From: a virus
Taxonomy: Duplodnaviria; Heunggongvirae; Uroviricota; Caudoviricetes
Strand: one strand, 5' to 3'
Length of the DNA stretch: 64,000 nt
IMG/VR virus record: IMGVR_UViG_3300022661_000085
Location: 12,191-76,190 of that record
Made by a program: the position numbers and the translations under genes. The notes beneath the pieces were generated by a model. The model did not search any database. It was not told the origin of the DNA and saw only the letters and a list, made by a program, of their open reading frames with translations. This document shows, piece after piece, positions 40,005-58,456 of the stretch; position 1 is the stretch's first letter; each line of letters starts with the position of its first letter.

Positions 40005-41001
40005 GAGAATTTATTTGTCCGATGAGGACATTCGCGCAGCTCTTGAGAAAGCAACGCAGGAACTCCGCAATACGAAGTTTCATTCCGAGGATGTCAAGGT
40101 TACACTCCCTGCTCCTAAAGACAATCGCAAAGCAAAACTTGTTTTTGCAGCCAGTGCGTGGGTGAAAATGTACGCTTTAGTTCACAAATACGGCACTGAA
40201 GTCGAGTGGCACGGGCTTGTTGAGCGCAAAGGTGAGGCAGAATTCCTCATTAAGGACATCCTCATTTTCCCTCACGAGGTTTCCAGCGCAACGGTAGTAT
40301 CCGATCAGAGATGCTACGAAGAATGGCTTGACTCCCTCGATGACGAAACCTTCAACGCCTGTCGTTTCCACGGTCATAGCCACGTAAATATGGCTGTAAG
40401 CCCGTCAGGAGTTGATATGACATACAGGAAGAACATCTTGGGCAACTTCGCTACACCGGGTGCAGGAGATGATTACTTCTACATCTTCATCATCACAAAC
40501 AAAAAAGGCGATATCAGTGGCGAAATCTACGACTTGTCGAATAACGCTTTATATGCTACCAATGAAATCGAATTCTCGGTAATCGAGATTGAAGACATCA
40601 AGAGACGCATCAAGGACGCATTCCACGATGCCATTGAGGAATATGTAGACAGGCTCACTCAAAAGAACCTTACTTCGATCAATAGTAAGGGTGAGCTTAG
40701 CTTCACGATTTCCTCTGATGTCGAGGTAGAAGATGACTTCTTCCTTTCGGAACTTATCTCTGAAGCTGAAGGCGTAGTTGTAGAGCGTAGAGTTACTGCC
40801 CCCGTATCAACCTATCCTTATCACGGCACATACAACGGAAGCGCTCCGGCAGCGGCAACAACCCCGAAGACTACCTCATCCTTGCAGAGCAAACGTCCCG
40901 ACGTCGAAGACGACGATGATTATGGACGCCAAATTTCCCTCTATGACGACGATGATGAGGACGACTACTACAAACTCTACAGAGAGAGGTGCTCAGTATG
41001 A
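39982..41001 (+). CDS. JAB/MPN (JAMM) metalloprotease, deubiquitinase-like, with an acidic Asp-rich C-terminal tail
   Basis: 'E...HGHSHVNMAVSPSGVD' is the JAMM H-x-H-x7-S-x2-D motif, with an upstream Glu ('VEWHGLVERKGE'). The C-terminal reads 'DVEDDDDYG...YDDDDEDDYY'. Confidence 0.7.
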   Translation: MKEITMAKRIYLSDEDIRAALEKATQELRNTKFHSEDVKVTLPAPKDNRKAKLVFAASAWVKMYALVHKYGTEVEWHGLVERKGEAEFLIKDILIFPHEVSSATVVSDQRCYEEWLDSLDDETFNACRFHGHSHVNMAVSPSGVDMTYRKNILGNFATPGAGDDYFYIFIITNKKGDISGEIYDLSNNALYATNEIEFSVIEIEDIKRRIKDAFHDAIEEYVDRLTQKNLTSINSKGELSFTISSDVEVEDDFFLSELISEAEGVVVERRVTAPVSTYPYHGTYNGSAPAAATTPKTTSSLQSKRPDVEDDDDYGRQISLYDDDDEDDYYKLYRERCSV

Positions 41002-41672
41002 ATCTCGTAAAATCACAGGACTACTTCAATCCTATTGACGTAACCAGCCGATGTCACATCATCGGCTGTGGCTCCGTCGGCTCTACCGTGGCAGAGCTTC
41101 TTGTTCGCCTCGGTATCACAAAGATTTCCCTCTACGACTTTGACGTCGTTTCTGCTCACAATCTGGCGAACCAGATGTTTACCAATGCAGACATCAAGCG
41201 ACTCAAGGTTGATGCGGTAAAGGATATGCTGTGTGCAATTAACCCCGAAGCCGCGAACGACATCACTGTTTACCCCGAAGGGTGGACACAGAACACACGC
41301 TTGAGTGGCTATGTTTTCCTGTGCGTTGACAACATCGACCTCAGACGTGAAATCGCTATCAAGAACAAACCCAATCAGTCCATCAAAGCAATGTTTGATT
41401 TCAGAACTCGCCTTGAGGATGCTCAGCATTATGCCGCCGACTGGAAAGATTCCCGTATGGTGGACAATCTCATCCGCAGTATGGACTTCACTCACGAAGA
41501 AGCTAAAGCTTCGACTCCTGTAACGGCGTGCAACGTTGAAATGGGAGTAGCACCCACAGTAAGAATCATCTGTTCTTACGGAGTTTCTAACTTTATGAAC
41601 TTCATCAGAAAGAAGGAACTCAAGAAAATTGTTACGATAGACGCATTCAATTTTGATATTGATGCGTTTTAA
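40989..41672 (+). CDS. E1-like (ThiF/MoeB family) activating enzyme
   Basis: 'IIGCGSVGSTVAELLVRLGI..ISLYDFDVVSAHNLANQ' is the Rossmann GxGxxG and nucleotide-binding signature of E1/ThiF. The C-terminal Cys reads 'TACNVEMGVAP'. Its start overlaps the stop of the JAB gene. Confidence 0.75.
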   Translation: MLSMNLVKSQDYFNPIDVTSRCHIIGCGSVGSTVAELLVRLGITKISLYDFDVVSAHNLANQMFTNADIKRLKVDAVKDMLCAINPEAANDITVYPEGWTQNTRLSGYVFLCVDNIDLRREIAIKNKPNQSIKAMFDFRTRLEDAQHYAADWKDSRMVDNLIRSMDFTHEEAKASTPVTACNVEMGVAPTVRIICSYGVSNFMNFIRKKELKKIVTIDAFNFDIDAF

Positions 41673-41995: not shown

Positions 41996-43390
41996 ATGCC
42001 ATACATAACTATACCGGTGCGTCAGAAAGAGTACCAGATTTCTTTCGACGACATCTTAAACGGTATCAATGAGTCGTTCTTTGCAAGGATGATGGATGAT
42101 ACCTGTGATACAAGAACGGTATATCGTGACCACACCCCGCCCCGTCTGCTTGAAAAAATCAACATCGGGGCTATGGTTGGTATGCTTGAAAAGTTCAACA
42201 ACCGCCACCGTGAGTATTTCGATGTACCCAAAGAAAACCTTTACGAAACCTTTTATCTTATGAAAAAGAACAAGGGTTTCTCGGTTGTAGTGCGTGAGAT
42301 TTTCAAGACTCACAACGCTAACTCTGGCATTTCATACAGCGGCAAAGACGTTTATGCAGATGTGTTTGCTATCTTGAAGGGATTGCTTACCAATCACCCT
42401 TGCGCAGAACACAACAGAATCGAGCAGGAATCTCTTGCTAAGTGTGTTCAGTACCTAACTCCTCTCGGATTTGAGGTAAATGAAGAGAAAATCAAATCCT
42501 TCATCAAAGCAGGGTTCCGCCGCATAGACGCACCCCGTGCTGAGTTTAAGAGCGTTCTCACCGACCTCAAAATCACCTTCGAAAACAAACTGTTCGGAAG
42601 CTATCACACCTCTGCATTTGCTTATGTCAAGGGCAGATCTACGATAGATGCTCTTAAACGTCACCAGAGAAACAATTCGCGCTGGTTCCTCAAGCTTGAT
42701 TTTTCAAACTTCTTTGGTTCCACTACTCACGAATTTGTTCTTCGTCAGCTTAGCAGCATTTTCCCTTACAGCGAGATTGTTAAGAGCGAAAGAGGTCGCG
42801 AGGCTCTGTCGAAGGCATTATCTCTCTGTTTCCTGAACGGCGTTCTTCCGCAGGGTACTCCGTTTAGCCCTACGATCACGAATATTATGATGATCCCTAT
42901 CGATCACGCCATCGCTAAGATGTGCCGTGAGCATAGCCCTCATCTCTGCTATACAAGGTATGCAGACGACATCCTCATTTCGAGCGACCTGTCGTTCACG
43001 TGGGAAGTCGATAAGGAAGGTTCCGTACAGAATGAAATCCTTGACATTCTCCGTCGTTTCAATGTTCCCTTCTCTCTTAACACCGAGAAAACCAGATATG
43101 GTTCTTCCGCCGGTCGCAACTGGAACCTTGGACTGATGCTTAACAAGGATAACGAAATCACCATCGGTCACGAAAAGCGAAAGGCTTTCAAGGCGGCGGT
43201 GTATTCCTTCTTAAACGATTACACGCATCATCGTGTGTGGGACGTTGAGGAAGTGCAGGTTCTTGGTGGACAAATTGCATACTACAGAAATGTAGAAAAG
43301 GAAAACATCGATGCAATTATTCTGGCGTATAACCAGCGCTTCGGTGTTGATATGATGCAGATCATCAAGGACATCATAAGCAATAGATAA
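41996..43390 (+). CDS. reverse transcriptase (stand-alone; retron/Abi/DRT-like, not group II or DGR type)
   Basis: RT motifs in order: 'AYVKGRSTIDALKRH' (NAxxH-like), 'FLKLDFSNFFGS' (motif A), 'LPQGTPFSPTITN' (motif B'), 'YTRYADDILISS' (YADD), 'NTEKTRYG'. There is an N-terminal extension of about 160 aa and no maturase or endonuclease domain. Confidence 0.85.
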   Translation: MPYITIPVRQKEYQISFDDILNGINESFFARMMDDTCDTRTVYRDHTPPRLLEKINIGAMVGMLEKFNNRHREYFDVPKENLYETFYLMKKNKGFSVVVREIFKTHNANSGISYSGKDVYADVFAILKGLLTNHPCAEHNRIEQESLAKCVQYLTPLGFEVNEEKIKSFIKAGFRRIDAPRAEFKSVLTDLKITFENKLFGSYHTSAFAYVKGRSTIDALKRHQRNNSRWFLKLDFSNFFGSTTHEFVLRQLSSIFPYSEIVKSERGREALSKALSLCFLNGVLPQGTPFSPTITNIMMIPIDHAIAKMCREHSPHLCYTRYADDILISSDLSFTWEVDKEGSVQNEILDILRRFNVPFSLNTEKTRYGSSAGRNWNLGLMLNKDNEITIGHEKRKAFKAAVYSFLNDYTHHRVWDVEEVQVLGGQIAYYRNVEKENIDAIILAYNQRFGVDMMQIIKDIISNR

Positions 43391-43907: not shown

Positions 43908-44345
43908 ATGTATGAAGTAACTATTTACACGGACGGGGCGTGTTCAGGAAACCCCGGCGCTGGCGGTTGGGGCGCAATTCTCTTCTACGGTCAACACTCA
44001 AAGGAAATCAGTGGTGGCGTAGCAGACACGACAAACAACCGTATGGAGCTTCAGGCAGTTATAAGTGCACTGAAGTGCTTAAAAGCACCGAGCAAAGTTT
44101 CGCTGTACAGCGATTCTGCGTATGTAGTAAATGCATTTGCTCAAGGCTGGATTGATAACTGGCAAGCATCCGGCTGGAAAACCAAGGGGAGAAAACCCGT
44201 ACAAAACAAAGAATTGTGGCTTCAGTTGCTTGCCGCTATGAAGCCTCACCAAGTTAAATTCATAAAAGTTAAAGGTCATTCTGATAACCAATACAACAAC
44301 AGATGTGATGAGCTTGCAAGAATGGCAATCGAAAAATTGAAGTGA
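43908..44345 (+). CDS. rnhA: ribonuclease HI
   Basis: 'IYTDGACSGNPGAGGWGAIL...TNNRMELQAVISAL...LYSDSAYVVN...VKGHSDNQYNNRCDELAR' carries the RNase H catalytic D, E, D, D signature in canonical order. Confidence 0.8.
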   Translation: MYEVTIYTDGACSGNPGAGGWGAILFYGQHSKEISGGVADTTNNRMELQAVISALKCLKAPSKVSLYSDSAYVVNAFAQGWIDNWQASGWKTKGRKPVQNKELWLQLLAAMKPHQVKFIKVKGHSDNQYNNRCDELARMAIEKLK

Positions 44346-45700: not shown

Positions 45701-45904
45701 ATGAAAAAGTACATCAATTTGAGGACTTTTATGTCTCTCTTGTATCTTTTGACATTCATCTTCCTCGCGGTTTTGATGAATCACTTCCCGCAAGCTCTTT
45801 CTGCGGAGCCAACTATTCTCGGAGCAATTCTCTGCGGAACGAATATCGGCATGGCAACGGTGCTTTTCATCGATGCAATTCGATCATCCAAAGAAAAGAA
45901 GTGA
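45701..45904 (+). CDS. small membrane protein (67 aa)
   Basis: Two hydrophobic helices. Confidence 0.3.
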   Translation: MKKYINLRTFMSLLYLLTFIFLAVLMNHFPQALSAEPTILGAILCGTNIGMATVLFIDAIRSSKEKK

Positions 45905-45911
45905 CATCGAT

Positions 45912-46385
45912 ATGAAATATTTTTTGATTGCCGATACACACTTCGGTCACGAAAACATCATCCGATACTGCAACCGCCCATTCAGGACGGCTGAGGAAAT
46001 GAACAGAGTGCTTATCCAAAATTGGAATAGCACCGTATCCAAAAATGACACTGTGTTTGTTCTTGGTGATTTTGCTTTCGGCAAGGAGTTGATTAAGGAA
46101 ATCGCTCCGAAGTTGAACGGAAGGAAAATCTTAATCAAGGGCAACCACGATGACTATAGAAATGAATACTATCGCAACTGTGGTTTTGAGGAAGTAAGCG
46201 AATACCCAATCTTGTTTGGCTTCTATCTGTTAAGCCACGAGCCGTTACAGCTCAGCGAAACCACACCGTATTTCAATTACTATGGTCACGTCCACAACGA
46301 TACAAAGTATGTGGACAACCTAACAAGCCGATGCGTAAGCGTCGAAAGAATTGGCTATAAGCCATTCTGCTTTTACGAAACATAA
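45912..46385 (+). CDS. calcineurin-like metallophosphoesterase
   Basis: Start is 'MKYFLIADTHFGHENI' (the D-x-H motif), followed by 'VLGDFAFG' and 'KGNHDD'. Confidence 0.65.
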   Translation: MKYFLIADTHFGHENIIRYCNRPFRTAEEMNRVLIQNWNSTVSKNDTVFVLGDFAFGKELIKEIAPKLNGRKILIKGNHDDYRNEYYRNCGFEEVSEYPILFGFYLLSHEPLQLSETTPYFNYYGHVHNDTKYVDNLTSRCVSVERIGYKPFCFYET

Positions 46386-46404
46386 AAAAAGTTTAAATAG
46401 GTAT

Positions 46405-46470
46405 GTCGGATCCCCTTATACATAATCCGAGCTTTTGATTACATCAAAAGTGCCTCGATGTTGAAAGTGA
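46405..46470 (+). repeat. conserved two-hairpin intergenic element, copy D (longer stem, same TTACA loop)
   Basis: Reads TCGGAT-(13 nt)-ATCCGA, then GCTTTTGATTACATCAAAAG, then TGCCTCGATGTTGAAAGTG. Confidence 0.5.
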
Positions 46471-46579
46471 ATTCAAATAAAAACAGTCGCAAAGCGACTG
46501 TTTGGAGGCTGGTTTTATAACGAATGCACCTCCAAGAGGAGCATTCCAAACGGTATTTAAACGGAATAGGAGAGGTACT

Positions 46580-46990
46580 ATGGACAACGAAAAGATTGTT
46601 GATATGAACGAAGAAGAAATGGACGAACAGTTCATTGAGGTAAAGCTTGATATCCTGCTCACCAATGAGGATATCGATGATATTATGTGTGCTGCTCTTG
46701 AGGGCGGTATCAACTATTGGTGCGGCAAAGCAAAGGTTGTCGGCAAGTACCTTGGCGATTATGCAAGCGAGCAGATCTCTCGCGGCGGCACTCTGAAGCT
46801 GTACGATGGTGAGTCTGGTGAAGAGTTCGAACTCACAAAAGAAAAGTTCATCAAAGGACTTATCAAACACTTGGAAGATGGTCGTTCTGACCTTATCTCC
46901 CAAGGAATGATTGATACCGGCGCCCTTGATGCTTGTGACGCCGATGCAATCATTCAGTATGCGCTCTTCGACGAAGTAGTTTATGGATGA
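46580..46990 (+). CDS. acidic hypothetical protein (136 aa)
   Basis: Start is 'MDNEKIV' after a GGAGAGGTACT RBS. Confidence 0.35.
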   Translation: MDNEKIVDMNEEEMDEQFIEVKLDILLTNEDIDDIMCAALEGGINYWCGKAKVVGKYLGDYASEQISRGGTLKLYDGESGEEFELTKEKFIKGLIKHLEDGRSDLISQGMIDTGALDACDADAIIQYALFDEVVYG

Positions 46991-46999
46991 GGTGACGGT

Positions 47000-47914
47000 A
47001 TGGCAAAATTCATAATGCTTATCGGTCTTCCGGGCTCGGGCAAATCCTATATCGCAGAAAAGACGAAAGCGAAAATGAAGAGTGTTCTCGTAGTTTCGTC
47101 AGACGAAATCCGAAAGGAATTGTTTGGCGACGAAAACGACCAGCAAACCCCCGAAAAAGTGTTTGAAACAATGAGAGAGCGAACCTTCAACGCACTCAAG
47201 GACGGCATCGATGTCATCTACGATGCCACAAACATCAGGAGAAAGTACCGCAGAGCACTTCTCCGTTCGCTTCCTAACTGTGAAAAAATTGCTTACGTCG
47301 TATGGTCGAGATATGACCTCTGCGTAAAGAGAGATGCGGAAAGAAGTCGCACTGTTGGCGAGCCCGTAATCAAAAAGATGCTTCTTGGATTTCAACCTCC
47401 GTTCTACGATGAGGGATGGGATAAGATTGAGGTTGACCACAACGGTGAACTTTATACTCAGTCCGACTACGAGGATTGGATGAACTGTGACCACGATAAT
47501 CCGCATCACAATAACACCGTCGGGGTTCACACTCAGCAGGTTTGCGATGAAGCATTCAAGCTCTCTTATGACGCTTTGAATGACGAAAAGTATAGCACGG
47601 CATTGACAAATATGATTGTTCTCTTCGCCGCCGCTATGCACGACACCGGCAAGAAATTTACCAAGACTTTCACCAACTTCAAGGGTGAAACCACCGAGAT
47701 TGCGCACTACTACGACCATCACAACGTAAGTAGTTACTATACTCTCGGTTTTGAAAAGTTGATGACTATGAGCATCGAGGAAAGATTGCTGATTGCTTGG
47801 CTTGTAAACGTACATATGGAGCCGTTCTTCAACAGCAAGTATTACAAAAATCTTAAGCCCGATCTGAAGTCGCTCGTTGATGCGCTTCATTCCTGCGACG
47901 TAAAGGGCGCATAA
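47000..47914 (+). CDS. P-loop polynucleotide-kinase-like domain fused to an HD phosphohydrolase-like domain (RNA end-healing candidate)
   Basis: N-terminal 'MLIGLPGSGKSY' and 'DATNIRRKYR'. C-terminal 'AAAMHDTGKK' and 'HYYDHHNVSSYY', which is an HD-type His/Asp pattern. Confidence 0.55.
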   Translation: MAKFIMLIGLPGSGKSYIAEKTKAKMKSVLVVSSDEIRKELFGDENDQQTPEKVFETMRERTFNALKDGIDVIYDATNIRRKYRRALLRSLPNCEKIAYVVWSRYDLCVKRDAERSRTVGEPVIKKMLLGFQPPFYDEGWDKIEVDHNGELYTQSDYEDWMNCDHDNPHHNNTVGVHTQQVCDEAFKLSYDALNDEKYSTALTNMIVLFAAAMHDTGKKFTKTFTNFKGETTEIAHYYDHHNVSSYYTLGFEKLMTMSIEERLLIAWLVNVHMEPFFNSKYYKNLKPDLKSLVDALHSCDVKGA

Positions 47915-47928
47915 AGAAAGGAGAGCAT

Positions 47929-48747
47929 ATGTTTGACCGCGAAACTTACATAAGAAGTAACTTGCAGGCACACTACAACGAAGCTGTTCAAAGCGGGCAA
48001 ATGGTGTTCTGCTTGATACTTCAAGGAAGCCAAAATTACGGGCTTGATATCAACAATGAAAAATATCAGAGCGATATAGACACGAAGGCTATTATCCTGC
48101 CTTCATTCGAGGATTTCTGTAGAGGCTCTGCTCCTATATCCACTACCCACATTCGAGAGAACAATGAGCACATTGATTTCAAGGATGTGAGAGTGATGTT
48201 TGAAACATTTAAAAAACAGAACGTTAATTTTGTTGAGGTTCTCTTCTCTGACTACTACATCGTAGCTGAAGGCTATGAGTCTTTCTGGGAAGATCTCCGT
48301 GCTCTTGCAGAAGATTTAACTCACTGTCACCCTACTCAAACACTGAGAACGATGGCGGGACTCAGCCTTGAAAAGCGGAAGGCGTTATGTCACCCATACC
48401 CTACCATCAAGGACAAGATCGATAAGTACGGATACGATGGCAAACAGCTACATCACATCATACGCATTAACGATTTCATCAAGAGATACGTTGCGGGAGA
48501 GTCGTTCAAGGCGTGCTTACATCCCACCCCTACAATAAGAGCTAAGCTGGATGCCGCAAAGTTGAACGAATATTCCTTGGAAGATGCGTTAAGGATGGCA
48601 GACGAGTTTTGCGATGAAACCAATGCAATCAGAAATGCTTATATGGAGAAGTATGGCAACGATTGCGATGGCAGAGCGTATAAGAAGCTCGATGAAATCA
48701 AAGTTGAACTACTACGCAAGTGGTTCAGAAAGGAATTGTCAATATGA
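47929..48747 (+). CDS. Pol-beta superfamily nucleotidyltransferase
   Basis: 'LILQGSQNYGLDINNEKYQSDIDTKAII', a GS..(D/E)xD NTase signature. Confidence 0.55.
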   Translation: MFDRETYIRSNLQAHYNEAVQSGQMVFCLILQGSQNYGLDINNEKYQSDIDTKAIILPSFEDFCRGSAPISTTHIRENNEHIDFKDVRVMFETFKKQNVNFVEVLFSDYYIVAEGYESFWEDLRALAEDLTHCHPTQTLRTMAGLSLEKRKALCHPYPTIKDKIDKYGYDGKQLHHIIRINDFIKRYVAGESFKACLHPTPTIRAKLDAAKLNEYSLEDALRMADEFCDETNAIRNAYMEKYGNDCDGRAYKKLDEIKVELLRKWFRKELSI

Positions 48748-49541
48748 AATATTATGTTGTTTCTGACATTCACGGATTCTACTCACAACTCGTGAAAACT
48801 TTGACTAAAGCAGGGTTCTTTGATGAGACCGAACCTCACAAGCTTATCGTTTGCGGAGATATGATGGACAGAGGAAATGAAGCTATCAAAATGCAAGAGT
48901 TTATGCTCAAGCTTCTTGAGGAAGACAAGCTTATATTTGTTAGGGGTAATCACGAAGATCTACTCATTTCAATGCTGGGCGACCTCAGAAAATCTCGTTT
49001 TGGATTTTACTTCGGCACCTCTCATCACGTATCTAATGGGACGTGGAGCACTGCTCTTCAGCTCACGGGGGTAAAGGATGATGATGCCACCGAGAACTAC
49101 GAAGACTTCATCAAGAAGGTAAAGGCGACTGGTTTTTATAAGAAGCTCATTCCTGCGAGCGTGGACTATTACGAAACCCCCAACTACATATTTGTCCACG
49201 GTTGGATACCCTGTTTCACAAACAAGATGCCTGATTGGCACACCAGAGGAAGGTCTTATGCTTACAATCCCAGATGGAGAGATGCAAGCAAAGAAGATTG
49301 GAATACCGCCAGATGGTTTAACGGTATGCAGGTTGCTGAGGAGCATCACATAATTGAACCCAACAAGAAAATTGTTTGCGGACACTGGCACGCATCTTTC
49401 GGTCACTGCGCTTACGAAAAGAAATGCACGGAGTTTGGTGAGAGTGCAGATTTCACTCCATATTATGGCAACGGTGTGATTGCAATCGACGGATGCACCG
49501 CGTACACAAATGAGGTTAATTGCCTTGTCATTGAGGATTAA
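48744..49541 (+). CDS. PPP-family (lambda-phosphatase-like) metallophosphatase
   Basis: 'YYVVSDIHG', 'CGDMMDRGNE', 'RGNHEDL'. Start is the internal Met 'MKYYVV'. Confidence 0.7.
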   Translation: MKYYVVSDIHGFYSQLVKTLTKAGFFDETEPHKLIVCGDMMDRGNEAIKMQEFMLKLLEEDKLIFVRGNHEDLLISMLGDLRKSRFGFYFGTSHHVSNGTWSTALQLTGVKDDDATENYEDFIKKVKATGFYKKLIPASVDYYETPNYIFVHGWIPCFTNKMPDWHTRGRSYAYNPRWRDASKEDWNTARWFNGMQVAEEHHIIEPNKKIVCGHWHASFGHCAYEKKCTEFGESADFTPYYGNGVIAIDGCTAYTNEVNCLVIED

Positions 49542-49546
49542 ATACT

Positions 49547-50017
49547 GTGTCGAAGCGCACATATATTTTATCAAATAAATCAGCTATTGAAGATTGGATC
49601 TTTTTAAATAAGAGCAAAGCTTGGATTGCCAGACAATTGCATTGCAAAATTGACACCCTAAACCGATATCTAAAAGAAATGAATATATCATATTCTGGAA
49701 ACCAAAGTGGCAAAGGGGTTAAGACATATGTTCCTTCGAGGTATATGCCATTTCAAGAATATATATCAAAATCCAAAAACGTTCATAGCGATCATATCCG
49801 AAAGAAACTATTAAGAGATGGATTAAAAAAGCACGAATGTGAACGATGTCATAATACTCATTGGAACGGACTTTTGATACCTCTCGAAGTACACCATAAA
49901 GACGGGGATAAGTCTAACAATGACTTGTCTAACTTGATGATGTTATGCCCCAACTGCCACGCTCAAACCGATTTTTACAGAGGCAGAAACAAGAATTCTG
50001 GGCGTATGGCGAAATAG
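49547..50017 (+). CDS. HNH endonuclease
   Basis: 'CERCHNTHWNG...EVHHKDGDKSNNDLSNLMMLCPNCH'. Confidence 0.75.
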   Translation: MSKRTYILSNKSAIEDWIFLNKSKAWIARQLHCKIDTLNRYLKEMNISYSGNQSGKGVKTYVPSRYMPFQEYISKSKNVHSDHIRKKLLRDGLKKHECERCHNTHWNGLLIPLEVHHKDGDKSNNDLSNLMMLCPNCHAQTDFYRGRNKNSGRMAK

Positions 50018-50084
50018 GCAGAACGCTACGGTCTTAAAAACCGTTGAATAAGATTCGTGCGGGTTCGAATCCCGCTATGCCCAC
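50014..50084 (+). pseudogene. degenerate tRNA-like element (T-arm + acceptor-like 3' strand + CCA, no D-arm)
   Basis: ..ACGGT-CTTAAAA-ACCGT..GCGGGTTCGAATCCCGC-TATGCCC-A-CCA. The 5' acceptor strand has 2 mismatches. Confidence 0.3.
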
Positions 50085-50597
50085 CAGATCGGTGCTACGA
50101 AGCCTGAATGCTGGCATTGAAAAGGAGAACAAACCAGCGGACGTTGGGATGAAAGCAGCAGTAGTAAATGGAGTTAGATGAACAGCCGATAAAGTGCGTG
50201 GGATGTTCCCCGCAAGCTACTCACCCATATGGAGAGATTTCCTGCAAAAGGTTGAAATTAGTAATCGTAAAACCCACGGCTTATTTCAATTTGCCGAAGA
50301 AATAAGCAACGAGATGGCGCACCACATACGCTCAAACCGCTAAGACTTTCATAAAACAGAACTTAGCAAGCTTAGAATGTGGAATTTTCAAGGGAAGGCA
50401 TTGGTGGGTTCTCTAAATTGCCACTGATGAGAAAGCCGAACAATAGGATTTAGTTCCGAAAAAGGCACTGGTGGAACAAACAGTACGACCTTGAAGCTAA
50501 GGTGTTCACCGACGGGACAGCCCCGCAACGGTTAAATAAGAGGCGAGCTAAAATTTCTCGGACGGCTTGAAGTACAAAAGCCGTAAACACATCATAC

Positions 50598-50687
50598 GGA
50601 GAGTTAAGCATAGTTGGCACTGCAGCGGTTTGCTAAACCGTTCGCCGTTTATTCGGCGCAGAGGTTCGAGTCCTCTACTCTCCGCCA
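50598..50687 (+). tRNA. tRNA-Ser (GCU), CCA encoded
   Basis: GGAGAGT..anticodon loop UUGCUAA..long variable arm CGCCG-TTTA-TTCGGCG..T-arm..ACTCTCC-G-CCA. Confidence 0.7.
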
Positions 50688-50689
50688 AT

Positions 50690-50761
50690 GTAAGTGTGGT
50701 GTAACGGTAACACGGCGGTCTCCAAAACCGTAAGATGGGGGTTCGAATCCCTCCGCTTATG
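50690..50761 (+). tRNA. tRNA-Trp (CCA anticodon)
   Basis: GTAAGTG..D-arm GTGT/ACAC..anticodon loop CUCCAAA..T-arm GGGGGTTCGAATCCCTC. Confidence 0.6.
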
Positions 50762-50762
50762 C

Positions 50763-50839
50763 GGGACGTTAGCTCAGTTGGTTAGAGCCACCGGCTCATA
50801 ACCGGTAGGTCTAAGGTTCGAGTCCTTAACGTCCCACCA
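50763..50839 (+). tRNA. tRNA-Met (CAU), CCA encoded
   Basis: GGGACGT-TA-GCTCAGTTGGTTAGAGC..ACCGG-CUCAUAA-CCGGT..ACGTCCC-A-CCA. Confidence 0.7.
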
Positions 50840-50987
50840 GCCCTGTTCATTCAAAAAGTTTCCTTGCAGGGGTTGTTAAAGGAAGCCTTCCGCTACGGTT
50901 AATGGTTCAAATTCTACCGGCAATAAAACAATAGAAGCCTCGCAAGGTGCAAGCGTTCCAATAAGGTGTTCAGCGGATTACATATAT

Positions 50988-51063
50988 GCTGGTGTAGCTC
51001 AGTTGGTAGAGCAGTTGATTTGTAATCAACCGGTCGTGGGTTCGAGTCCCACCATCAGCTCCA
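50988..51063 (+). tRNA. tRNA-Thr (UGU), CCA encoded
   Basis: GCTGGTG..GTTGA-UUUGUAA-TCAAC..GTGGGTTCGAGTCCCAC-CATCAGC-T-CCA. Confidence 0.7.
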
Positions 51064-51555
51064 AAAGTGTTGCAGATGTGAATATAGGCGGTGACAATGA
51101 CGCGACGAAAGTCGTGGTGCCAATATCGTGAGCACAATAACACGGGAGCTGCTCCTATGGCTGAAGGCTCCTTGCAACATTCATATAGATGAGAAGAAAG
51201 CAACTCTCTGCTGGCGGTGAAATGATATATCTTCCAGCCGTACTAAAACGTATTAGGCATTTGTATGACGTTAAGCCCTCTACCGACACGTTAGATCGGG
51301 GTAAGCACATCAGAGAGGATATAGTACTACGAGAGTGCAGATTACATACTTAGCGGGCATTTGGTAACTTAGCCGGTGGTGTGCATCGGTTAGCGAACTG
51401 CAAGAGCGTATAGGTTACTGAAGCGGCGCGGCAATCGTTTGCAAGCAAATAACTTTAATGGCTTGAGGAGTGGACGAGGTGTGGCTACGGAGACCAACCA
51501 ACGGTGTTGAGCGTAAGTAGAGTTGTTAACCTTGTTTGCTTGTGAACATTGTTAC
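51064..51555 (+). other. ~490-nt ORF-free segment inside the tRNA array (uncharacterised ncRNA candidate)
   Basis: No ORF with an RBS on either strand. Flanked by tRNA-Thr and tRNA-Ser. Confidence 0.3.
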
Positions 51556-51642
51556 GGAGAGTTAGCCTAATGGTAAGGCAGCAGACTTGAAATCTGCCGT
51601 CACCGAAAGGTGTTCAGGGTTCGAGTCCCTGACTCTCCGCCA
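51556..51642 (+). tRNA. tRNA-Ser (UGA), CCA encoded
   Basis: GGAGAGT..GCAGA-CUUGAAA-TCTGC..long variable arm..ACTCTCC-G-CCA. Confidence 0.7.
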
Positions 51643-51645
51643 TAT

Positions 51646-51729
51646 GCCAGAGTGGCGGAATTGGCAGACGCACCAGACTCAAAATCTGGCGGTGGCAACA
51701 CCGTGTGGGTTCAAGTCCCATCTTTGGTA
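51646..51729 (+). tRNA. tRNA-Leu (CAA), CCA encoded
   Basis: GCCAGAG..CCAGA-CUCAAAA-TCTGG..long variable arm..CTTTGGT-A-CCA. Confidence 0.65.
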
Positions 51730-51881
51730 CCAAGCGCTACGGCGGTCGGCGTCCTGAAAAGGTTAAAGATCGCCCCACATAAAATCTATGCACCTGTACC
51801 CTTGAAAAACTCGTATCAGGTATTTTACCGTGGATAAGCAGGTGCGTGTGAAATAAAAGGGTAAGAGAATAAGCACAACAC

Positions 51882-51956
51882 TGGGGTATCGCCAAGCGGT
51901 AAGGCATAGGACTTTGACTCCTACATTCGTTGGTTCGAATCCATCTACCCCAGCCA
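51882..51956 (+). tRNA. tRNA-Gln (UUG), CCA encoded
   Basis: TGGGGTA..TAGGA-CUUUGAC-TCCTA..TACCCCA-G-CCA. Confidence 0.7.
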
Positions 51957-52206
51957 AAGAAAGACACACACAGCAACTTTCAAATTAAATTAACAGGATA
52001 GTAAGTATAATGCTATGGGACGTGAGCTCCTAAAACTCACTGATTACTGGTTTAAGAACCAGATGACTGTCGGCAAAGTCGAATGATTGAGAATTAAACA
52101 TTCTCTGTTGCTCTTACGATGTAGCCTGTAGTAAGAAGCGACGTCGCAAGGCTATATCCTCACCCAACGTCATTGTCCGGGAAGGATGGCGGTGTGTCTT
52201 GAATAT

Positions 52207-52282
52207 GTTCGCGTAGCTCAGCCGGTAGAGCACCTGACTTTTAATCAGGGAGTCGGAGGTTCGAGTCCTCTCGCGAACACCA
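52207..52282 (+). tRNA. tRNA-Lys (UUU), CCA encoded
   Basis: GTTCGCG-TA-GCTCAGCCGGTAGAGC..CCTGA-CUUUUAA-TCAGG..CGCGAAC-A-CCA. Confidence 0.7.
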
Positions 52283-52285
52283 TTT

Positions 52286-52360
52286 GTGGGTATCGTCTAA
52301 CGGCTAAGACACCTGCCTTCCAAGCAGGGGATGCGAGTTCGATTCTCGTTACTCACTCCA
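52286..52360 (+). tRNA. tRNA-Gly (UCC), CCA encoded
   Basis: GTGGGTA..CCTGC-CUUCCAA-GCAGG..TACTCAC-T-CCA. Confidence 0.7.
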
Positions 52361-52361
52361 C

Positions 52362-52444
52362 GCCCGTGTGGTGGAATTGGTAGACACGCCAGACTTAGGA
52401 TCTGGTTCGTAAGAGTGAGAGTTCGAGTCTCTCCACGGGTACCA
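52362..52444 (+). tRNA. tRNA-Leu (UAG), CCA encoded
   Basis: GCCCGTG..CCAGA-CUUAGGA-TCTGG..long variable arm..CACGGGT-A-CCA. Confidence 0.7.
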
Positions 52445-52446
52445 AT

Positions 52447-52521
52447 CGGGGCATAGTTCAATGGTAGAGCTCTCGCTTTGGGAGCGAGATGTTGTGGGTT
52501 CGAGTCCCGTTGCTCCGACCA
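52447..52521 (+). tRNA. tRNA-Pro (UGG), CCA encoded
   Basis: CGGGGCA-TA-GTTCAATGGTAGAGC..CTCGC-UUUGGGA-GCGAG..TGCTCCG-A-CCA. Confidence 0.7.
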
Positions 52522-52547: not shown

Positions 52548-53057
52548 ATGAAGAAAGCTTTAATCGTCATCGATATGCAGAACGACTTTGTGACTGGTGC
52601 TTTGGCAAATCCCGCCGCAGAAGCAATCGTAAAGCCTATCGCAAAAAAAGTTAAGTCATTCGATGGCACAATTATCGCAACCAGAGACACTCACGATGCA
52701 GATTATCTGAAATCTCCCGAGGGTGTTAAGCTTCCCGTAGAGCATTGCATCAAGAACACCGACGGATGGAAGGTTGTTCCCGAGATTGAAGCTGCTATTA
52801 AAACAAAGCAGGATTTCAGATATCTCGATAAGCCCACCTTCGGTATGCCCAGAGATTGGAATCTCGGTACTTACGACGAGGTTGAGGTTGTAGGAACCTG
52901 CACAGACATCTGCGTTGTAAGCAACGTACTTCTCTTGAAGGCGCTCTACCCTGCTCTTTCCATCAAAGTTCACGCAAATCTTTGTGCCGGTCTTTCCGAG
53001 GAAAAGCATCTCGCAGCATTGGAAGTAATGCGTAGCTGTCAGGTCGAGGTAGTGTAA
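52548..53057 (+). CDS. pncA: isochorismatase-family nicotinamidase
   Basis: 'ALIVIDMQNDF', catalytic Cys context 'GTCTDICVVSN', 169 aa. Its stop overlaps the start of the next gene (TAATG). Confidence 0.7.
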   Translation: MKKALIVIDMQNDFVTGALANPAAEAIVKPIAKKVKSFDGTIIATRDTHDADYLKSPEGVKLPVEHCIKNTDGWKVVPEIEAAIKTKQDFRYLDKPTFGMPRDWNLGTYDEVEVVGTCTDICVVSNVLLLKALYPALSIKVHANLCAGLSEEKHLAALEVMRSCQVEVV

Positions 53058-53869
53058 TGATTAAACTAAACGACCACGTTATCGAACAGGATTGCTTTGG
53101 TGACGGCACTTTAAAGTGTGCCCTGCCGCCGATCAATTCCGCAGGCAGTCTTATCGTTATCACTTGGTGTTACGATAACGATGCAGAGTTATTTACTCTC
53201 TGGAGCCTTGTTTGCTATATCAGGGACAGATATCCCGACATTACGCTGAACTTGGCTATGCCGTACATTCCTCACGCAAGACAAGACCGTGAGGTAAGCC
53301 ATAGACTATTCACCTTGAAGTATTTTGCAAAGGCAATCAATGCTATGAACTTCCGCAAGGTGTTCGTGCTGGATCCCCACTCGGATGTTTCTCTCGCGGT
53401 ACTTGACAGAGTAGTACCTATGCGCTCCATCTTTTATCCCGATACCGATCTCACGAGGAATAGCGGTGATGTTTATACGGTTATGTACCCTGATGCCGGT
53501 GCGGCTAAGAAGTACGGCTCTCAAGAAGATGTCGCTAATCCTATCATCGGAAACAAGCATCGCAACGAAGAAGGAAGAATCGACGGATATGAGCTTCTTA
53601 ACTTTGTTGAGGGGACTAAGAACGTCATCATCCGTGATGACATTTGTAGTTATGGTGGCACATTTGTTGCCGCCGCAAAAGAACTGAAGAAGCGCGGTGT
53701 CGAGAAGATTATTCTCTACATTTCGCACTGTGAAAACAATATTTTGAAAGGCGAAGTTCTTGACTGGGTTGATATGGTGTATACAACCGACAGTATCTGC
53801 ACTGTCCAGCACCCCAAAATTCAGATTATCAAGAGCTTTAGAGAAGGTAGAGTCAATGTACCGAATTAA
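53057..53869 (+). CDS. ribose-phosphate pyrophosphokinase (Prs) homolog; candidate ADP-ribose pyrophosphokinase of a phage NAD+ reconstitution pathway
   Basis: 'VLDPHSD' and the PRPP-binding loop 'IIRDDICSYGGTF'. It overlaps the downstream NAMPT-like gene by 14 nt. Confidence 0.6.
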   Translation: MIKLNDHVIEQDCFGDGTLKCALPPINSAGSLIVITWCYDNDAELFTLWSLVCYIRDRYPDITLNLAMPYIPHARQDREVSHRLFTLKYFAKAINAMNFRKVFVLDPHSDVSLAVLDRVVPMRSIFYPDTDLTRNSGDVYTVMYPDAGAAKKYGSQEDVANPIIGNKHRNEEGRIDGYELLNFVEGTKNVIIRDDICSYGGTFVAAAKELKKRGVEKIILYISHCENNILKGEVLDWVDMVYTTDSICTVQHPKIQIIKSFREGRVNVPN

Positions 53870-55361
53870 CCCTTTGCTTGAAAGCGATTTCTACAAGCAG
53901 GTTCACTGGAACCAGTACCCAAAGAACGTTACAAAGGTTGTGAGCTACTTCACGCCTCGTATGAGCCGCCTTAAGAATGTGGGAGAAAACCACATCATTA
54001 TGTTCGGTTTACAGTCGTTCATCAAGGAGTTCTTAATCGAGGACTTCAACGAGTTCTTCTTCGCTCGCTCAAAGGAAGAGGTTATGGCAGAGTACAAGCA
54101 CTTGATGGATAACACCCTCGGTGCAGGGCTCTACGGAGAGGAAAGAATTGCAGAGCTTCACGAGCTCGGTTATCTCCCTCTCGAAATTAAGGCACTCCCC
54201 GAAGGAACGAGAGTCCCCGTAGGAGTTCCTATGTTTGAGATCAGCAACACACATCCCAAGTTTGCTTGGCTCACCAATGCGATTGAGTCGGTAATCAGTT
54301 GCGAGATGTGGCACGCTATGATTTCTGCGAATGTCGGATATATGTACCGTCAGATCGTAAACAAGTATTACGATTTGAGTTGTGATGACAATATCCCCCG
54401 CAGAAAAGCTCTTGGTGACTTCTCGATGAGAGGTCAGGAGTCCAAGAGAAGCGCATACAAATCATCTGCAGCGTGGCTTCTCTCTTTCGTAAACACCGCT
54501 ACCGTTCCCGCAATCGACTATCTTGAGAGATATTATGGTTGCGATTGCTCAAAGGAAGAGGTTGGCTTTGGCGCCGTTTCCACCGAGCACTCCGTAATGT
54601 GTAGCAATTTCGCGGTTGACGGCGATGAAATCACAATGATTAAGCGCTTGCTCACCGAAATTTACCCCAACACCTCTTTCAGTATGGTCAGCGATAGCTA
54701 CGACTACTGGAATCTCGTAGACAATCTTCTTCCCTTGTGCAAGAACGAGATTATGAATCACAACGGATGTCTTCTCGTGAGAGGCGACTCCGGCGATCCT
54801 GTAGAGGTCGTAACGCAAACCGTGTTCCACCTTTGGAACATCTTCGGCGGAACTGTTAATTCGAAGGGCTACAAGGTTCTCGATCCCCACGTCAAGGCAA
54901 TCTATGGCGATAGCATTACACCACAGAGAGCCAAAGCAATCTACAGTATCCTCGTTGAAAACGGGTTTGCCGCAAGCAATGTTTCTCTTGGCGTCGGAAG
55001 CTTTTCGATGCAGTGCTTGGAAACTATCGATTTATTCAACGGAGATCCCTTGACCACATACAACCCCTACACCAGAGACACCTTTGGCATTGCCATCAAG
55101 GCAACTTATGCTGAAGACGAGAACGGTGCGCCTATCCCGATTTTTAAGAACCCCAAGGAATCTTCCTTCAAGAAGTCCCACAAGGGTTGTGTAATCGTTA
55201 AGGAGCACGAGGGCGAGCTTGTGGCAGAAGATATGCACACCTACCTCGAAACCGTTGAGGACGAAAACAATCTTATGGAGTTTGTTTTCTGCGACGGTCA
55301 GATGGAGAAGGAATATTCCCTCAAGGAAATCCGCGACAGACTCCACGGAGGTAAGTTCTGA
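53856..55361 (+). CDS. nicotinamide phosphoribosyltransferase (NAMPT/NadV) family protein
   Basis: Start is 'MYRINPLLESDFYKQVHWNQYP', which matches the NAMPT N-terminal signature (NPLL..D.YK..H..QYP), after a GAGAAGG RBS. About 500 aa. Confidence 0.7.
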   Translation: MYRINPLLESDFYKQVHWNQYPKNVTKVVSYFTPRMSRLKNVGENHIIMFGLQSFIKEFLIEDFNEFFFARSKEEVMAEYKHLMDNTLGAGLYGEERIAELHELGYLPLEIKALPEGTRVPVGVPMFEISNTHPKFAWLTNAIESVISCEMWHAMISANVGYMYRQIVNKYYDLSCDDNIPRRKALGDFSMRGQESKRSAYKSSAAWLLSFVNTATVPAIDYLERYYGCDCSKEEVGFGAVSTEHSVMCSNFAVDGDEITMIKRLLTEIYPNTSFSMVSDSYDYWNLVDNLLPLCKNEIMNHNGCLLVRGDSGDPVEVVTQTVFHLWNIFGGTVNSKGYKVLDPHVKAIYGDSITPQRAKAIYSILVENGFAASNVSLGVGSFSMQCLETIDLFNGDPLTTYNPYTRDTFGIAIKATYAEDENGAPIPIFKNPKESSFKKSHKGCVIVKEHEGELVAEDMHTYLETVEDENNLMEFVFCDGQMEKEYSLKEIRDRLHGGKF

Positions 55362-55831
55362 TGGTTACATATCACCAAGGAGATTTAATCAAAAGCTCCT
55401 GCAATGTGATCTGCCATCAAACCAACTGTATGGGAGTTATGGGCTCGGGTATTGCAAAGACAATTCGAGCCCTTTATCCCGACTCTTACAAAGCGCTCAG
55501 AGAACGGTTCGAGAAAGGCGAGGCTAAGCTCGGCGAAATCGATATCGTTCCTGTGGAAACAGAAAATGGCTCTCTGCGTTTCGTCATCAATATGTATTCG
55601 CAGAGAGAATATCTTCCGCGCGGTATTCAACATACCAACTACGAAGCATTTAAGAGTTGCCTTGCGATGATTAAAAGCTTCTGCCATATCAAGTCTATCT
55701 ACAAGATTGGCTTCCCTGCTAAGATTGGATGCGGACTTGCTGGTGGCGACTGGAGTGTTGTCAAAGAGCTTATCGAGGAAGCATTTTCTGAAGATGGCTG
55801 GGACGTTGAGGTTTGGGAACTAAACGTTTAA
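55361..55831 (+). CDS. Macro domain protein (ADP-ribose binding/processing)
   Basis: 'GDL...NVICHQTNCMGVMGSGIAK' and 'GCGLAGG' match the macro-domain Gly-rich loops. Its start overlaps the NAMPT stop. Confidence 0.7.
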   Translation: MVTYHQGDLIKSSCNVICHQTNCMGVMGSGIAKTIRALYPDSYKALRERFEKGEAKLGEIDIVPVETENGSLRFVINMYSQREYLPRGIQHTNYEAFKSCLAMIKSFCHIKSIYKIGFPAKIGCGLAGGDWSVVKELIEEAFSEDGWDVEVWELNV

Positions 55832-55908
55832 CGGAATAATGTTCCGAACAATACCCCGAATAATACCGAACAATACAATCTATTGTTCGGAATGTACGGA
55901 GGCACCAT

Positions 55909-56193
55909 ATGAGAAATCGAGCTTATAGGCGAAGGATGAAAAACAAGAAGGACAATCGCCTTCGCAAAATCATAACAAAGTGCGGTTATATTCCTCACGC
56001 TGGTTACATCGACTGGGATGAGGTTGACGGAGTGTGGCAACCCACAGGCAAATACATTAAGTACCCGAAGAACTCCGACGCACAAAAATACTTAAAAAAG
56101 CAATCCAACCGTAGAGTCAGACGTTCTGCTGACCTTCCTCAAAAAGGGAATGGATATCGCAAACGTTCTGAATACTGGAGGATACTGTATTGA
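55909..56193 (+). CDS. small basic hypothetical protein (94 aa)
   Basis: Arg/Lys-rich ORF. Confidence 0.3.
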   Translation: MRNRAYRRRMKNKKDNRLRKIITKCGYIPHAGYIDWDEVDGVWQPTGKYIKYPKNSDAQKYLKKQSNRRVRRSADLPQKGNGYRKRSEYWRILY

Positions 56194-56208
56194 ATACAAG
56201 GAGCTTTT

Positions 56209-56925: not shown

Positions 56926-56938
56926 GCAGGAGGGCAAT

Positions 56939-58441: not shown

Positions 58442-58456
58442 TTGGAGGTCGCAGGT

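Follow-up and report, generated by a model that had tools for sequence, protein, structure and literature searches.

Why would a tailed phage carry, one after the other, a kinase fused to an HD domain, a small nucleotidyltransferase and a lambda-phosphatase-like enzyme? Repair of RNA is the textbook response of phages to defences that cleave tRNA, T4 Pnkp and Rnl1 against PrrC being the best-known case, and to our knowledge its biochemistry has been worked out almost entirely in T4 and in a few operons of bacteria. We analyzed such a block of genes at positions 47000-49541 of a 64,000-nucleotide (nt) stretch of DNA, hereafter the window, taken from the IMG/VR virus record IMGVR_UViG_3300022661_000085 (positions 12,191 to 76,190 of that record). 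An earlier reading made from the sequence alone (the sequence-only reading) had proposed that this block belongs to an RNA end-healing toolkit, and our results support this proposal. We give a probability of roughly three in four to the following reading: the block is one half of a phage RNA repair system, most likely for tRNA, and heals ends and fills gaps, and the other half, for sealing and for rebuilding 5' ends, is found 8-12 kb downstream. In particular, the acceptor Asp/Arg pair of the kinase is kept, and ligases of two families, RlaP-like genes and Thg1-like genes stand, at dozens of independent loci in phages and bacteria, beside relatives of the kinase-HD protein, which we call Pnk-HD. 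The open reading frames (ORFs) of the block were found where the sequence-only reading had placed them, all on the plus strand, and the genes assigned to the two halves are as follows.

45912-46385, plus strand: small metallophosphoesterase of the phrog_547 type (Pfam Metallophos, phrog_547)
47000-47914, plus strand: Pnk-HD, 304 aa, with a predicted kinase at aa 1 to about 147 and an HD domain at aa about 160 to 304
47929-48747, plus strand: putative RlaP-like Pol-beta nucleotidyltransferase, 272 aa (motifs and transitive homology)
48744-49541 (alternative start 48720), plus strand: PPP metallophosphoesterase, lambda-phosphatase-like (motifs, Pfam Metallophos)
57632-58441, plus strand: predicted Thg1-like protein (TLP) of the bacterial TLP type (Pfam Thg1, phrog_4717)
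60863-62002, plus strand: predicted Rnl5-type ATP-dependent RNA ligase (PF21189 and PF09414; KLDG, Lys201)

The strongest support for the heal-and-seal reading is comparative linkage. In IMG/VR we found at least 302 loci with a relative of the kinase-HD protein, of which 80 were fetched with 10 kb flanks and collapsed at 90% identity into 49 clusters; all ORFs of the 80 loci were then compared with a limited probe set, for which the window and two loci carrying Rnl1 supplied the profiles and sequences. The genes found near Pnk-HD, counted over the 49 clusters, were:

RNA ligase (Rnl5- or Rnl1-type): 38/49 within 10 kb, 25/49 within 1.5 kb
RlaP-like nucleotidyltransferase: 24/49 within 10 kb, 23/49 within 1.5 kb
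Thg1-like gene: 16/49 within 10 kb, 6/49 within 1.5 kb
phrog_547 phosphoesterase: 14/49 within 10 kb, 3/49 within 1.5 kb
PPP enzyme: 7/49 within 10 kb, 1/49 within 1.5 kb
homologue of the protein encoded at 36159-37676 (see below): 5/49 within 10 kb, 1/49 within 1.5 kb

As a rough estimate, which is not a computed null, a random gene would fall within 1.5 kb in a few percent of cases on contigs of about 100-170 kb. Every one of the gene hits counted in the 80 fetched loci (188/188) shared the strand of Pnk-HD. Most often the ligase comes first, then RlaP and then Pnk-HD, with Thg1 some kilobases off. For example, the Lysinibacillus phage LC76P1 shows a row of Prs-like, NAMPT, Rnl5, RlaP and Pnk-HD genes, an Rnl1-type ligase abuts Pnk-HD in other phages, and isolates of Roseburia and Clostridium carry an overlapping Rnl5/Pnk-HD gene pair. 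Because Pnk-HD is linked to two unrelated RNA ligase families, which would otherwise be hard to explain, these results argue for a shared heal-and-seal function, and the recurrent linkage of ligase, RlaP and Thg1-like genes makes the reading as healing, filling and sealing well supported. The clade of the window has a split version of the cassette, in which Pnk-HD, RlaP and PPP stay together; the ligase lies 6-7 kb downstream in the close relatives L096 and L100, and in the window it is separated from the Pnk-HD block by a tRNA array and an NAD+ salvage block. Both components that had been thought uncommon turned out to be frequent, considering that the kinase-HD fusion forms at least 1419 protein clusters at 90% identity in addition to the IMG/VR loci mentioned above and that a Thg1-like gene is present in 28 of the 80 fetched loci.

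We then asked what each protein is predicted to do. Pfam AAA_33 matched Pnk-HD at aa 5-134 (E value 4e-20). With a family profile of 36 full-length homologues, the best solved relatives of the kinase were CthPnk (7e-16), the tRNA-bound Ser kinase PSTK (2e-14), Pnkp1 of the Pnkp1/Rnl/Hen1 complex (1e-12) and T4 Pnk (4e-6), with mammalian PNKP also among the closest. Consistently, the AlphaFold2 (AF2) model of Pnk-HD (predicted local distance difference test, pLDDT, 94) gave the CthPnk kinase as top Foldseek match, with a template modelling (TM) score of 0.72 over the target, and the same polynucleotide kinases were leading. The Walker A motif GLPGSGKS occupies aa 9-16, with G9, P11, G14 and K15 invariant; the acceptor-site motif SSDEIR holds D35 and R38, and T77 lies in YDATN. 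Residues K15, S16, D35, R38, T77 and R111/R115/R117 align to CthPnk Lys21, Ser22, Asp38, Arg41, Thr80 and Arg116/Arg120/Arg123, respectively; within the family each of them is either invariant or conserved to 90% or more. In CthPnk, mutagenesis and crystallography showed that Lys21, Ser22, Asp38 (the general base) and Arg41 are essential, and that Thr80, at the first phosphodiester, and the lid arginines, in contact with the nucleoside triphosphate (NTP), contribute (PMC3902929). The counterparts of the acceptor Asp/Arg pair in T4 Pnk are Asp35 and Arg38. Taken together, these features identify the N-terminal domain of Pnk-HD as a predicted P-loop 5'-OH polynucleotide kinase of the CthPnk/T4 Pnk clade.

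The C-terminal part was more divergent, as the window protein did not match PF01966 at E <= 0.1; the same profile matched 32 of the 36 full-length homologues, and together with AAA_33 this bears out the fusion of a kinase to an HD motif set that had been read by eye. The AF2 model is helical over aa 174-303. Conserved residues comprise HDNPHH (165-170), H177, H214-D215, K218, H236, H240, H272 and D300; the metal motif H177, H214-D215 and D300, as well as H170, H236, H240 and H272, is invariant or nearly so. A profile of the HD part matched the HD domain of class II nucleotidyltransferase structures 3WFO-3WFS (E 1.2e-9), which we take to be the CCA-adding enzyme of Thermotoga maritima, with one-to-one counterparts of the motifs HH..EH, HDIGKP, YxH..VGA and H..PF. 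By its motifs, the HD domain of Pnk-HD thus resembles the one of class II tRNA nucleotidyltransferases. In E. coli, the CCA enzyme owes a 2',3'-cyclic phosphodiesterase and a phosphatase activity to its HD domain. In addition, the phage family phrog_6931, which has the HD domain followed by the kinase, aligned with the HD part of the window protein at positions 24-154 and with the kinase part at positions 185-340. Pnk-HD appears, from these alignments, to be made of the modules of HD-Pnk in swapped order and is predicted to be HD-Pnk-like in function; it falls outside that family by architecture, as the kinase (aa 1-147) precedes the HD domain (aa ~160-304). A full-text literature search for a kinase-first HD fusion returned nothing relevant, the primary HD-Pnk paper and the Burroughs/Aravind survey being outside its coverage.

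The gene following Pnk-HD encodes, as proposed earlier, a small nucleotidyltransferase of the Pol-beta type. Its invariant motifs are QGSQNY (32-37), SDxDxK (48-53), E80-H81 and K85-D86-R88, with a catalytic set in which G33-S34 and D49-x-D51 are invariant and E80, D83 and D86 conserved, and it matches phrog_388, annotated as nucleotidyltransferase; the family counts more than 5000 protein clusters. The AF2 model (pLDDT 95) shows an N-terminal nucleotidyltransferase domain, with strands at aa 25-86, and then helices to the C terminus, and superposes over its full length on phage nucleotidyltransferases of BFVD (TM 0.86). Foldseek against the PDB gave weak and partial matches (TM 0.3-0.43) to 3C18, Hailong HalB, LinB and ANT(6), which speak for a Pol-beta/KNTase-like fold and not for a function, and a PDB sequence search with the profile of the family returned noise only. 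As direct comparisons with Pfam, the PDB and T4 NrdC.11 gave no assignment, membership in RlaP was traced via intermediate homologues. PF10127, the RlaP family, matches 4 of the 34 aligned homologues. Its gathering score is exceeded by homologues at 35-41% identity; those of the cultured Lysinibacillus phage LC76P1 (40.7% identity, tblastn E 8e-38, 28.3 bits) and of Phass-1, a complete human-gut genome (24.9 bits), both exceed it. NrdC.11 is itself an RlaP by this profile (46.6 bits). By this transitive homology we treat the window protein as a divergent RlaP (RNA-ligase-associated Pol-beta), for which addition at 3' ends is predicted. Purified RlaP proteins (PfRlaP and PaRlaP) add one or two nucleoside monophosphates (NMPs) to 3'-OH ends of RNA, do not accept DNA and prefer Mn2+; moreover, RlaP partly restores aminoacylation of a tRNA short of one anticodon-loop nucleotide, and its authors proposed it as an antidote to nucleotide-excising ribotoxins such as RloC (PMC12776372, a preprint of December 2025).

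The sequence-only reading had also suggested that CCA ends could be rebuilt by this set of genes. We found nothing in support of it: the nucleotidyltransferase is RlaP-like and not a CCA-adding head. The class II head, neck and body are missing, and the CCA-enzyme-like HD domain belongs to the neighbouring gene; for this reason the protein was rejected as a CCA-adding enzyme.

The two distal genes would complete the pathway. The KxDG ligase seen earlier at 60863-62002 does carry a KLDG motif, with Lys201, and matched the Rnl5 ligase of Naegleria gruberi (NgrRnl) with E 1e-38 across the OB and adenylyltransferase domains, phrog_968 (E 2e-69), and PF21189 with PF09414; against TIGR02306 (DRB0094) it scored 122 bits, under the 151-bit equivalog cut-off. 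We assign it by homology as an Rnl5-type RNA ligase. The Thg1-like gene was also confirmed. Its product matched Pfam Thg1 (E 4e-30), phrog_4717 (E 1e-89) and, over both halves, the Bacillus thuringiensis TLP (4KGK; E 3.8e-66), with human and yeast Thg1 at 1e-3 to 3e-5, and the motifs RLDG (D35) and SDE (D80, E81) are taken as the putative catalytic carboxylates. This profile is the one of a bacterial-type TLP, a predicted template-dependent 3'-5' polymerase. Bacterial and archaeal TLPs are described as repairing 5'-truncated tRNAs by templated 3'-5' addition (PMC3061083, PMC4820378).

Two metallophosphoesterases remain, whose links to repair are different. The one at 45912, which had been noticed before, is indeed of this type (phrog_547 E 1e-46, with a weak PdeM match and PDB aq_1665). 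In many phages (loci L161, L163, L168-L169, L172-L176, L179-L180, L185-L186, L199 and L205), a phrog_547-type metallophosphoesterase gene comes directly after a Pnk gene that encodes the kinase alone (about 170 aa), a pair that looks like the kinase and phosphatase modules of bacterial Pnkp divided over two genes. This suggests that the phrog_547 enzyme is able to stand in for the HD module, and HD and metallophosphoesterase modules appear interchangeable.

The PPP enzyme is less clearly a member of the cassette. Its lambda-phosphatase-like identity stands, considering that it matches Pfam Metallophos (E 5.5e-15) and keeps, invariant or nearly so, D8, H10, G38-D39-x-x-D42-R43-G44, G68-N69-H70-E71, H152 and G213-H214-x-H216 (numbered from the ATG at 48744, which is a likelier start than 48720). 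The toolkit membership originally given to it is loose, and a protein or nucleotide substrate is possible. Its relatives are lambda phosphatase (3e-6), eukaryotic PP1/PP5, ApaH, PrpE and the phosphatase region of bacterial Pnkp (2e-6 in NCBIfam; 0.01 for PDB 4J6O), matches that do not separate Pnkp from ApaH, PrpE and protein phosphatases. Among PHROGs it matches phrog_246 (NinI-like Ser/Thr phosphatase) and phrog_8238, a 737-position profile annotated as 'RNA ligase' that we read as Pnkp-like. Looking from the PPP side, 28 of 80 loci had one or more repair genes (Pnk, RlaP, ligase or Thg1-like) at a distance of up to 10 kb, in every case on the strand of PPP and in several arrangements (next to Rnl5, next to Thg1 or, as also seen in close relatives of the window, next to RlaP), and 52 of 80 had no repair gene at that distance. 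The linkage looks like more than chance and is far from obligatory. It is therefore quite possible, if somewhat short of an even bet, that the gene encodes a protein Ser/Thr/Tyr phosphatase or an ApaH/PrpE-like hydrolase, acting on dinucleoside polyphosphates or signalling nucleotides, within a counter-defence island, which would be compatible with RNA repair by the other genes. The best matches and the NinI-like family agree with this, as do the loci without a repair gene, the few Pnk-HD loci with PPP within 10 kb and the fact that the HD domain and the second metallophosphoesterase already cover the expected 3'-end chemistry. On the contrary, the matches to the Pnkp phosphatase region and phrog_8238 and the same-strand repair genes in 28 loci point to RNA; 2',3'-cyclic phosphodiesterase activity is reported for lambda phosphatase as well as for CthPnkp (PMC2190708), and by analogy a role of PPP in RNA healing is chemically plausible.

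Putting the predicted activities in order, we propose the following mechanism, in which tRNA as substrate, anticodon nucleases as trigger and the order of the steps are what we infer; the presence of the genes, their catalytic residues and folds and their recurrent linkage are what the sequences show. A host ribotoxin would cut tRNA or another structured RNA, leaving a 2',3'-cyclic (or 3') phosphate and a 5'-OH. The HD domain would strip the 2',3' or 3' phosphate to give a 3'-OH, and the P-loop kinase would move a phosphate from NTP onto the 5'-OH. In this transfer Asp35 would be the general base and Arg38 would position the acceptor, the NTP being held by Lys15/Ser16 and the lid arginines. 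By the activities of their families, RlaP could restore one or two lost 3' nucleotides, the Rnl5-type ligase could join the 3'-OH/5'-PO4 break and the TLP could rebuild 5'-truncated acceptor stems by templated 3'-5' addition. The two metallophosphoesterases would probably be extra or alternative 2',3'-cyclic phosphodiesterases or phosphomonoesterases, a role that is plausible for the phrog_547-type enzyme and uncertain for the PPP enzyme.

To weigh other explanations, the RNA genes of the window and the remaining genes around the block have to be considered.

36159-37676, plus strand: putative RNA-binding protein, called a Ro60 homolog in the sequence-only reading (DUF2828, DUF7788, VWA_2, phrog_850)
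46502-46990, plus strand: small ORF matching phrog_2355 (E 4e-22), without Pfam match
49547-50017, plus strand: HNH homing-type endonuclease (Pfam HNH_3 and HNH, phrog_10822)
50000-52521, plus strand: array of 12 tRNAs directly 3' of the block (ARAGORN, Rfam)

ARAGORN found 16 tRNAs in the window and Rfam added three atypical tRNA-like RNAs of 116-127 nt, which corrects the earlier count of more than 18 tRNAs. The latter, missed by ARAGORN, match the whole Rfam tRNA model with 41-50 bits and are located at 35501-35616, 35624-35741 and 35842-35968 (plus strand), around a tRNA-Tyr at 35751-35835 and 200-650 bp upstream of the 36159-37676 gene. Each has an insert of 52-57 nt in the anticodon arm, in which a hairpin and the sequence CUGCAA are found, and a weak YrlA (Y RNA-like) match covers 35564-35678 (31 bits, where the gathering score is 69). 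The three RNAs may be intron-bearing tRNAs, or else Y-RNA-like and partners of the 36159-37676 protein. That protein matches Pfam DUF2828, DUF7788 and VWA_2 as well as phrog_850, 'RNA-binding protein' (E 7e-139), and is a possible accessory of the toolkit.

These RNAs raise the question whether the enzymes serve the phage's own RNA biogenesis, maturing or splicing the phage tRNAs or the three long tRNA-like RNAs (35501-35968), with healing and sealing after excision of the insert of about 55 nt and the TLP completing 5' ends. The block adjoins the 12-tRNA array, the inserts sit in the anticodon arm, and fungal tRNA splicing is described as using a heal-and-seal kinase, phosphodiesterase and ligase (PMC10946426). 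We nonetheless hold this explanation to be improbable, as no splicing endonuclease was identified, the bacterial isolates carry the Rnl5/Pnk-HD pair with no other toolkit genes detected nearby, and the non-templated addition of 1-2 nt by RlaP fits damage repair and not precise splicing. Another alternative is that the cassette heals and seals DNA ends, at nicks or breaks of the phage genome. HD-Pnk of Deinococcus radiodurans is tied to DNA-damage resistance. Moreover, CthPnk was crystallised with a DNA acceptor, the locus L012 has a DNA ligase gene on the other side of Pnk-HD, and Runella HD-Pnk is described as a DNA/RNA end-healing enzyme. Against a DNA substrate, the linked ligases belong to the RNA ligase families Rnl5 and Rnl1, RlaP refuses DNA acceptors in vitro (PMC12776372), TLPs are reported to act on tRNA 5' ends (PMC3061083), and the tRNA array and RNA-binding protein point to RNA, which leaves DNA repair very improbable. 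Finally, the genes could serve nucleotide metabolism, as a kinase of deoxynucleoside monophosphates (dNMPs) or nucleosides, a nucleotidase and a nucleotide phosphatase, and not act on polynucleotides at all. We give almost no credence to this outcome, which the sequence-only reading had named as the one that would speak against it: the kinase does weakly match thymidylate kinase PHROGs (1.5e-4, 3.5e-4) and adenylate and APS kinases, the HD and metallophosphoesterase superfamilies include nucleotidases and an NAD+ salvage block is nearby, but the domains resolve otherwise. Polynucleotide and tRNA kinases score many orders better than thymidylate or adenylate kinases, the acceptor Asp/Arg pair is conserved, so that a dNMP or nucleoside kinase was rejected as a candidate, and RNA ligases are linked in most loci.

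Several observations weigh against RNA repair as we propose it. The functions of the cassette proteins are predicted from sequence, with substrates deduced from them. The window nucleotidyltransferase had no match in Pfam/NCBIfam even at E <= 1 (the gathering score of PF10127 being 23 bits), and hhalign of its profile with T4 NrdC.11 aligned the GS...DxD catalytic motif only, with a probability of 4%. CthPnk is only slightly closer to the kinase than PSTK, which leaves some room for a tRNA-linked acceptor in place of a 5'-OH. In the window the ligase and the TLP are not adjacent to the block, at about 12 kb and about 8 kb, respectively, and PPP, near Pnk-HD in so few of the 49 clusters, is the weakest link. 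Rnl5 ligases such as NgrRnl and DraRnl seal nicks in duplex RNA, and may suit stem breaks better than anticodon-loop breaks. Characterised HD-Pnk is reported to heal DNA as well as RNA ends (Munir and Shuman 2017).

How does the cassette compare with known systems? In HD-Pnk of Runella slithyformis, the HD domain, a 2',3'-phosphoesterase, is N-terminal and the 5'-OH kinase is C-terminal; the gene overlaps a ligase gene (PMC6097658). Like this enzyme and its counterpart in the D. radiodurans operon with DraRnl, Pnk-HD joins HD and P-loop kinase in one polypeptide and is linked to an ATP-dependent ligase, with close adjacency or overlap in relatives (those within 1.5 kb and the Roseburia and Clostridium pairs) but not in the window. 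Unlike it, and compared by description rather than by alignment, the window protein has the kinase first and the HD domain last, is encoded by a phage and is accompanied by RlaP, two metallophosphoesterases and a TLP; no Tpt1 or methyltransferase-HIT protein was seen as its partner. T4 Pnkp and Rnl1 are likewise a phage heal-and-seal pair against anticodon nucleases, with an Asp/Arg P-loop kinase, an RNA ligase and an RlaP (NrdC.11) in the genome; however, the T4 3'-phosphatase is of the DxDxT (HAD) type and not HD (PMC3592404), the ligase is Rnl1 and not Rnl5, and the T4 RlaP belongs to a distant cluster. CthPnkp (kinase, metallophosphoesterase and ligase), or Pnkp-Hen1, offers the closest solved kinase, with all catalytic residues in common, and a phosphatase that is a lambda-phosphatase-like metallophosphoesterase as is the gene product at 48744. 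On the contrary, the window has the modules in separate genes, another ligase family and an added HD domain, without Hen1 methyltransferase.

The RlaP-like protein shares with PfRlaP and PaRlaP of Pseudomonas (PF10127) the Pol-beta nucleotidyltransferase with a C-terminal helical domain, the GS/DxD motifs and relatives beside RNA ligase or end-healing genes; it differs in lying below Pfam detection and in having as partners the 5'-phosphate ligases Rnl5 and Rnl1, and not RtcB. Foldseek against the PDB gave no closely aligned solved structure for it. The nearest inventory is the one of the jumbo-phage toolkits, for which the accessible part of the review by Iyer et al. 2021 lists many tRNAs, Pnk, HD-like and calcineurin-like phosphoesterases, RlaP, Thg1, TROVE, RNA ligases and NAD+ salvage (PMC7824862), the same inventory as that of the window. 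In contrast to them, the window phage is about 100 kb or more, comes from gut Clostridia-type contigs of metagenome-assembled genomes (MAGs) and is not a catalogued jumbo phage, and its ligase is Rnl5, where that part of the review names RtcB, Rnl1 and Rnl2. Every element was therefore already known from these toolkits and no new principle is involved; the variant features, as judged from the sequences, are the kinase-first order, the CCA-enzyme-like HD domain and the Rnl5 partner.

What the analysis adds is a large, modular cassette family, carried by large phages of gut and rumen and by some Bacillota, of which the window has a member: a kinase-first HD healer, an RlaP gap-filler and an Rnl5 or Rnl1 ligase, often with a 3'-5' polymerase. 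The value lies in defining this large and testable family, even if it will not surprise a specialist. Its members are candidates for studying RlaP against nucleotide-excising ribotoxins, a physiological repair role of TLPs and the swapping of HD, HAD and metallophosphoesterase modules in 3'-end healing. A broader proposal, which we regard as doubtful, is that Pnk-HD, RlaP, Rnl5, the TLP, both metallophosphoesterases, the 36159-37676 protein and the three tRNA-like RNAs form one coordinated 'tRNA repairosome'. If true, it would deal with several lesions at once: cuts in the anticodon loop, loss of nucleotides by excision of the RloC type, and acceptor stems truncated at the 5' end. The tRNA-like RNAs would then serve as Y-RNA-like scaffolds or decoys, and PPP would have a non-canonical role, for example removal of a blocking group or destruction of a defence signal. 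The system would then be a modular and widespread counter-defence of gut and rumen phages, with an RNA component new to phage repair.

We also looked at the setting of the block. The window contains genes of a tailed phage (portal protein, large terminase, tape-measure protein and integrase), and megablast of positions 45800-50100 against 50,697 GenBank phage records gave no match; so far the phage is known from metagenomes and MAG contigs only. Copies of the kinase-HD protein with 97-99% identity are found on contigs of 10-106 kb binned to Eubacteriales and Clostridia MAGs, and copies with 54-56% identity in Christensenellaceae MAGs; because of these bins, we assign the phage to an animal or human gut, with probable hosts of the class Clostridia. 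From the 46502 ORF through the HNH gene the intergenic gaps are 9, 14, -4 and 5 nt, and between 46400 and 50000 there is no plus-strand terminator-like site with a clear T run; the block genes look co-transcribed. A promoter and terminator scan gave site numbers near the shuffled expectation and was uninformative except for the lack of a clear internal plus-strand terminator. The 46502-46990 ORF is clade-specific, being present only in close relatives, where it overlaps the start of Pnk-HD by 8 nt. The HNH gene seldom accompanies the cassette in other loci and is probably a mobile insertion outside the repair set. The ORFs flanking the Thg1-like gene (56888-57631 and 58442-58945) had no relatives in any fetched locus and were not counted as conserved parts.

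Between the two halves of the repair toolkit, at 52548-56925 (plus strand), lies the NAD+ salvage/ADP-ribose block, whose products are, by reading of the translations, isochorismatase/nicotinamidase-like, PRPP-synthetase-like, NAMPT, macro-domain (phrog_335) and NAD synthetase-like proteins. Other phages, such as LC76P1, L056, L063 and L104, also have homologues of its NAMPT, Prs and macro protein close to Pnk-HD. This block looks like an NAD+-reconstitution counter-defence module.

Directly 5' of the ligase, at 59003-60846 (plus strand), a gene for a GP88-family protein (PF17338) is followed by a 373-aa ORF (59725-60846), a putative SPFH/band-7 membrane protein by eye only; the order GP88, 373-aa ORF and Rnl5 is also found in L096. 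Just 3' of the ligase, the ORF at 62255-62599 (plus strand) reads by eye as a PemK/MazF-type toxin, a putative endoribonuclease, with homologues at the same position in the relatives L100 and L131, and it is followed by the tyrosine integrase (62799-63800, plus strand). Upstream of the block, the segment 38607-43390 (plus strand) holds two ORFs of 465 and 339 aa without Pfam match, together with genes for an E1-like protein of the ThiF family (40989-41672) and for a reverse transcriptase (41996-43390; RVT_1, phrog_2825), after which come RNase H (43908-44345) and DUF6273; the relatives L001, L002 and L004 keep this order.

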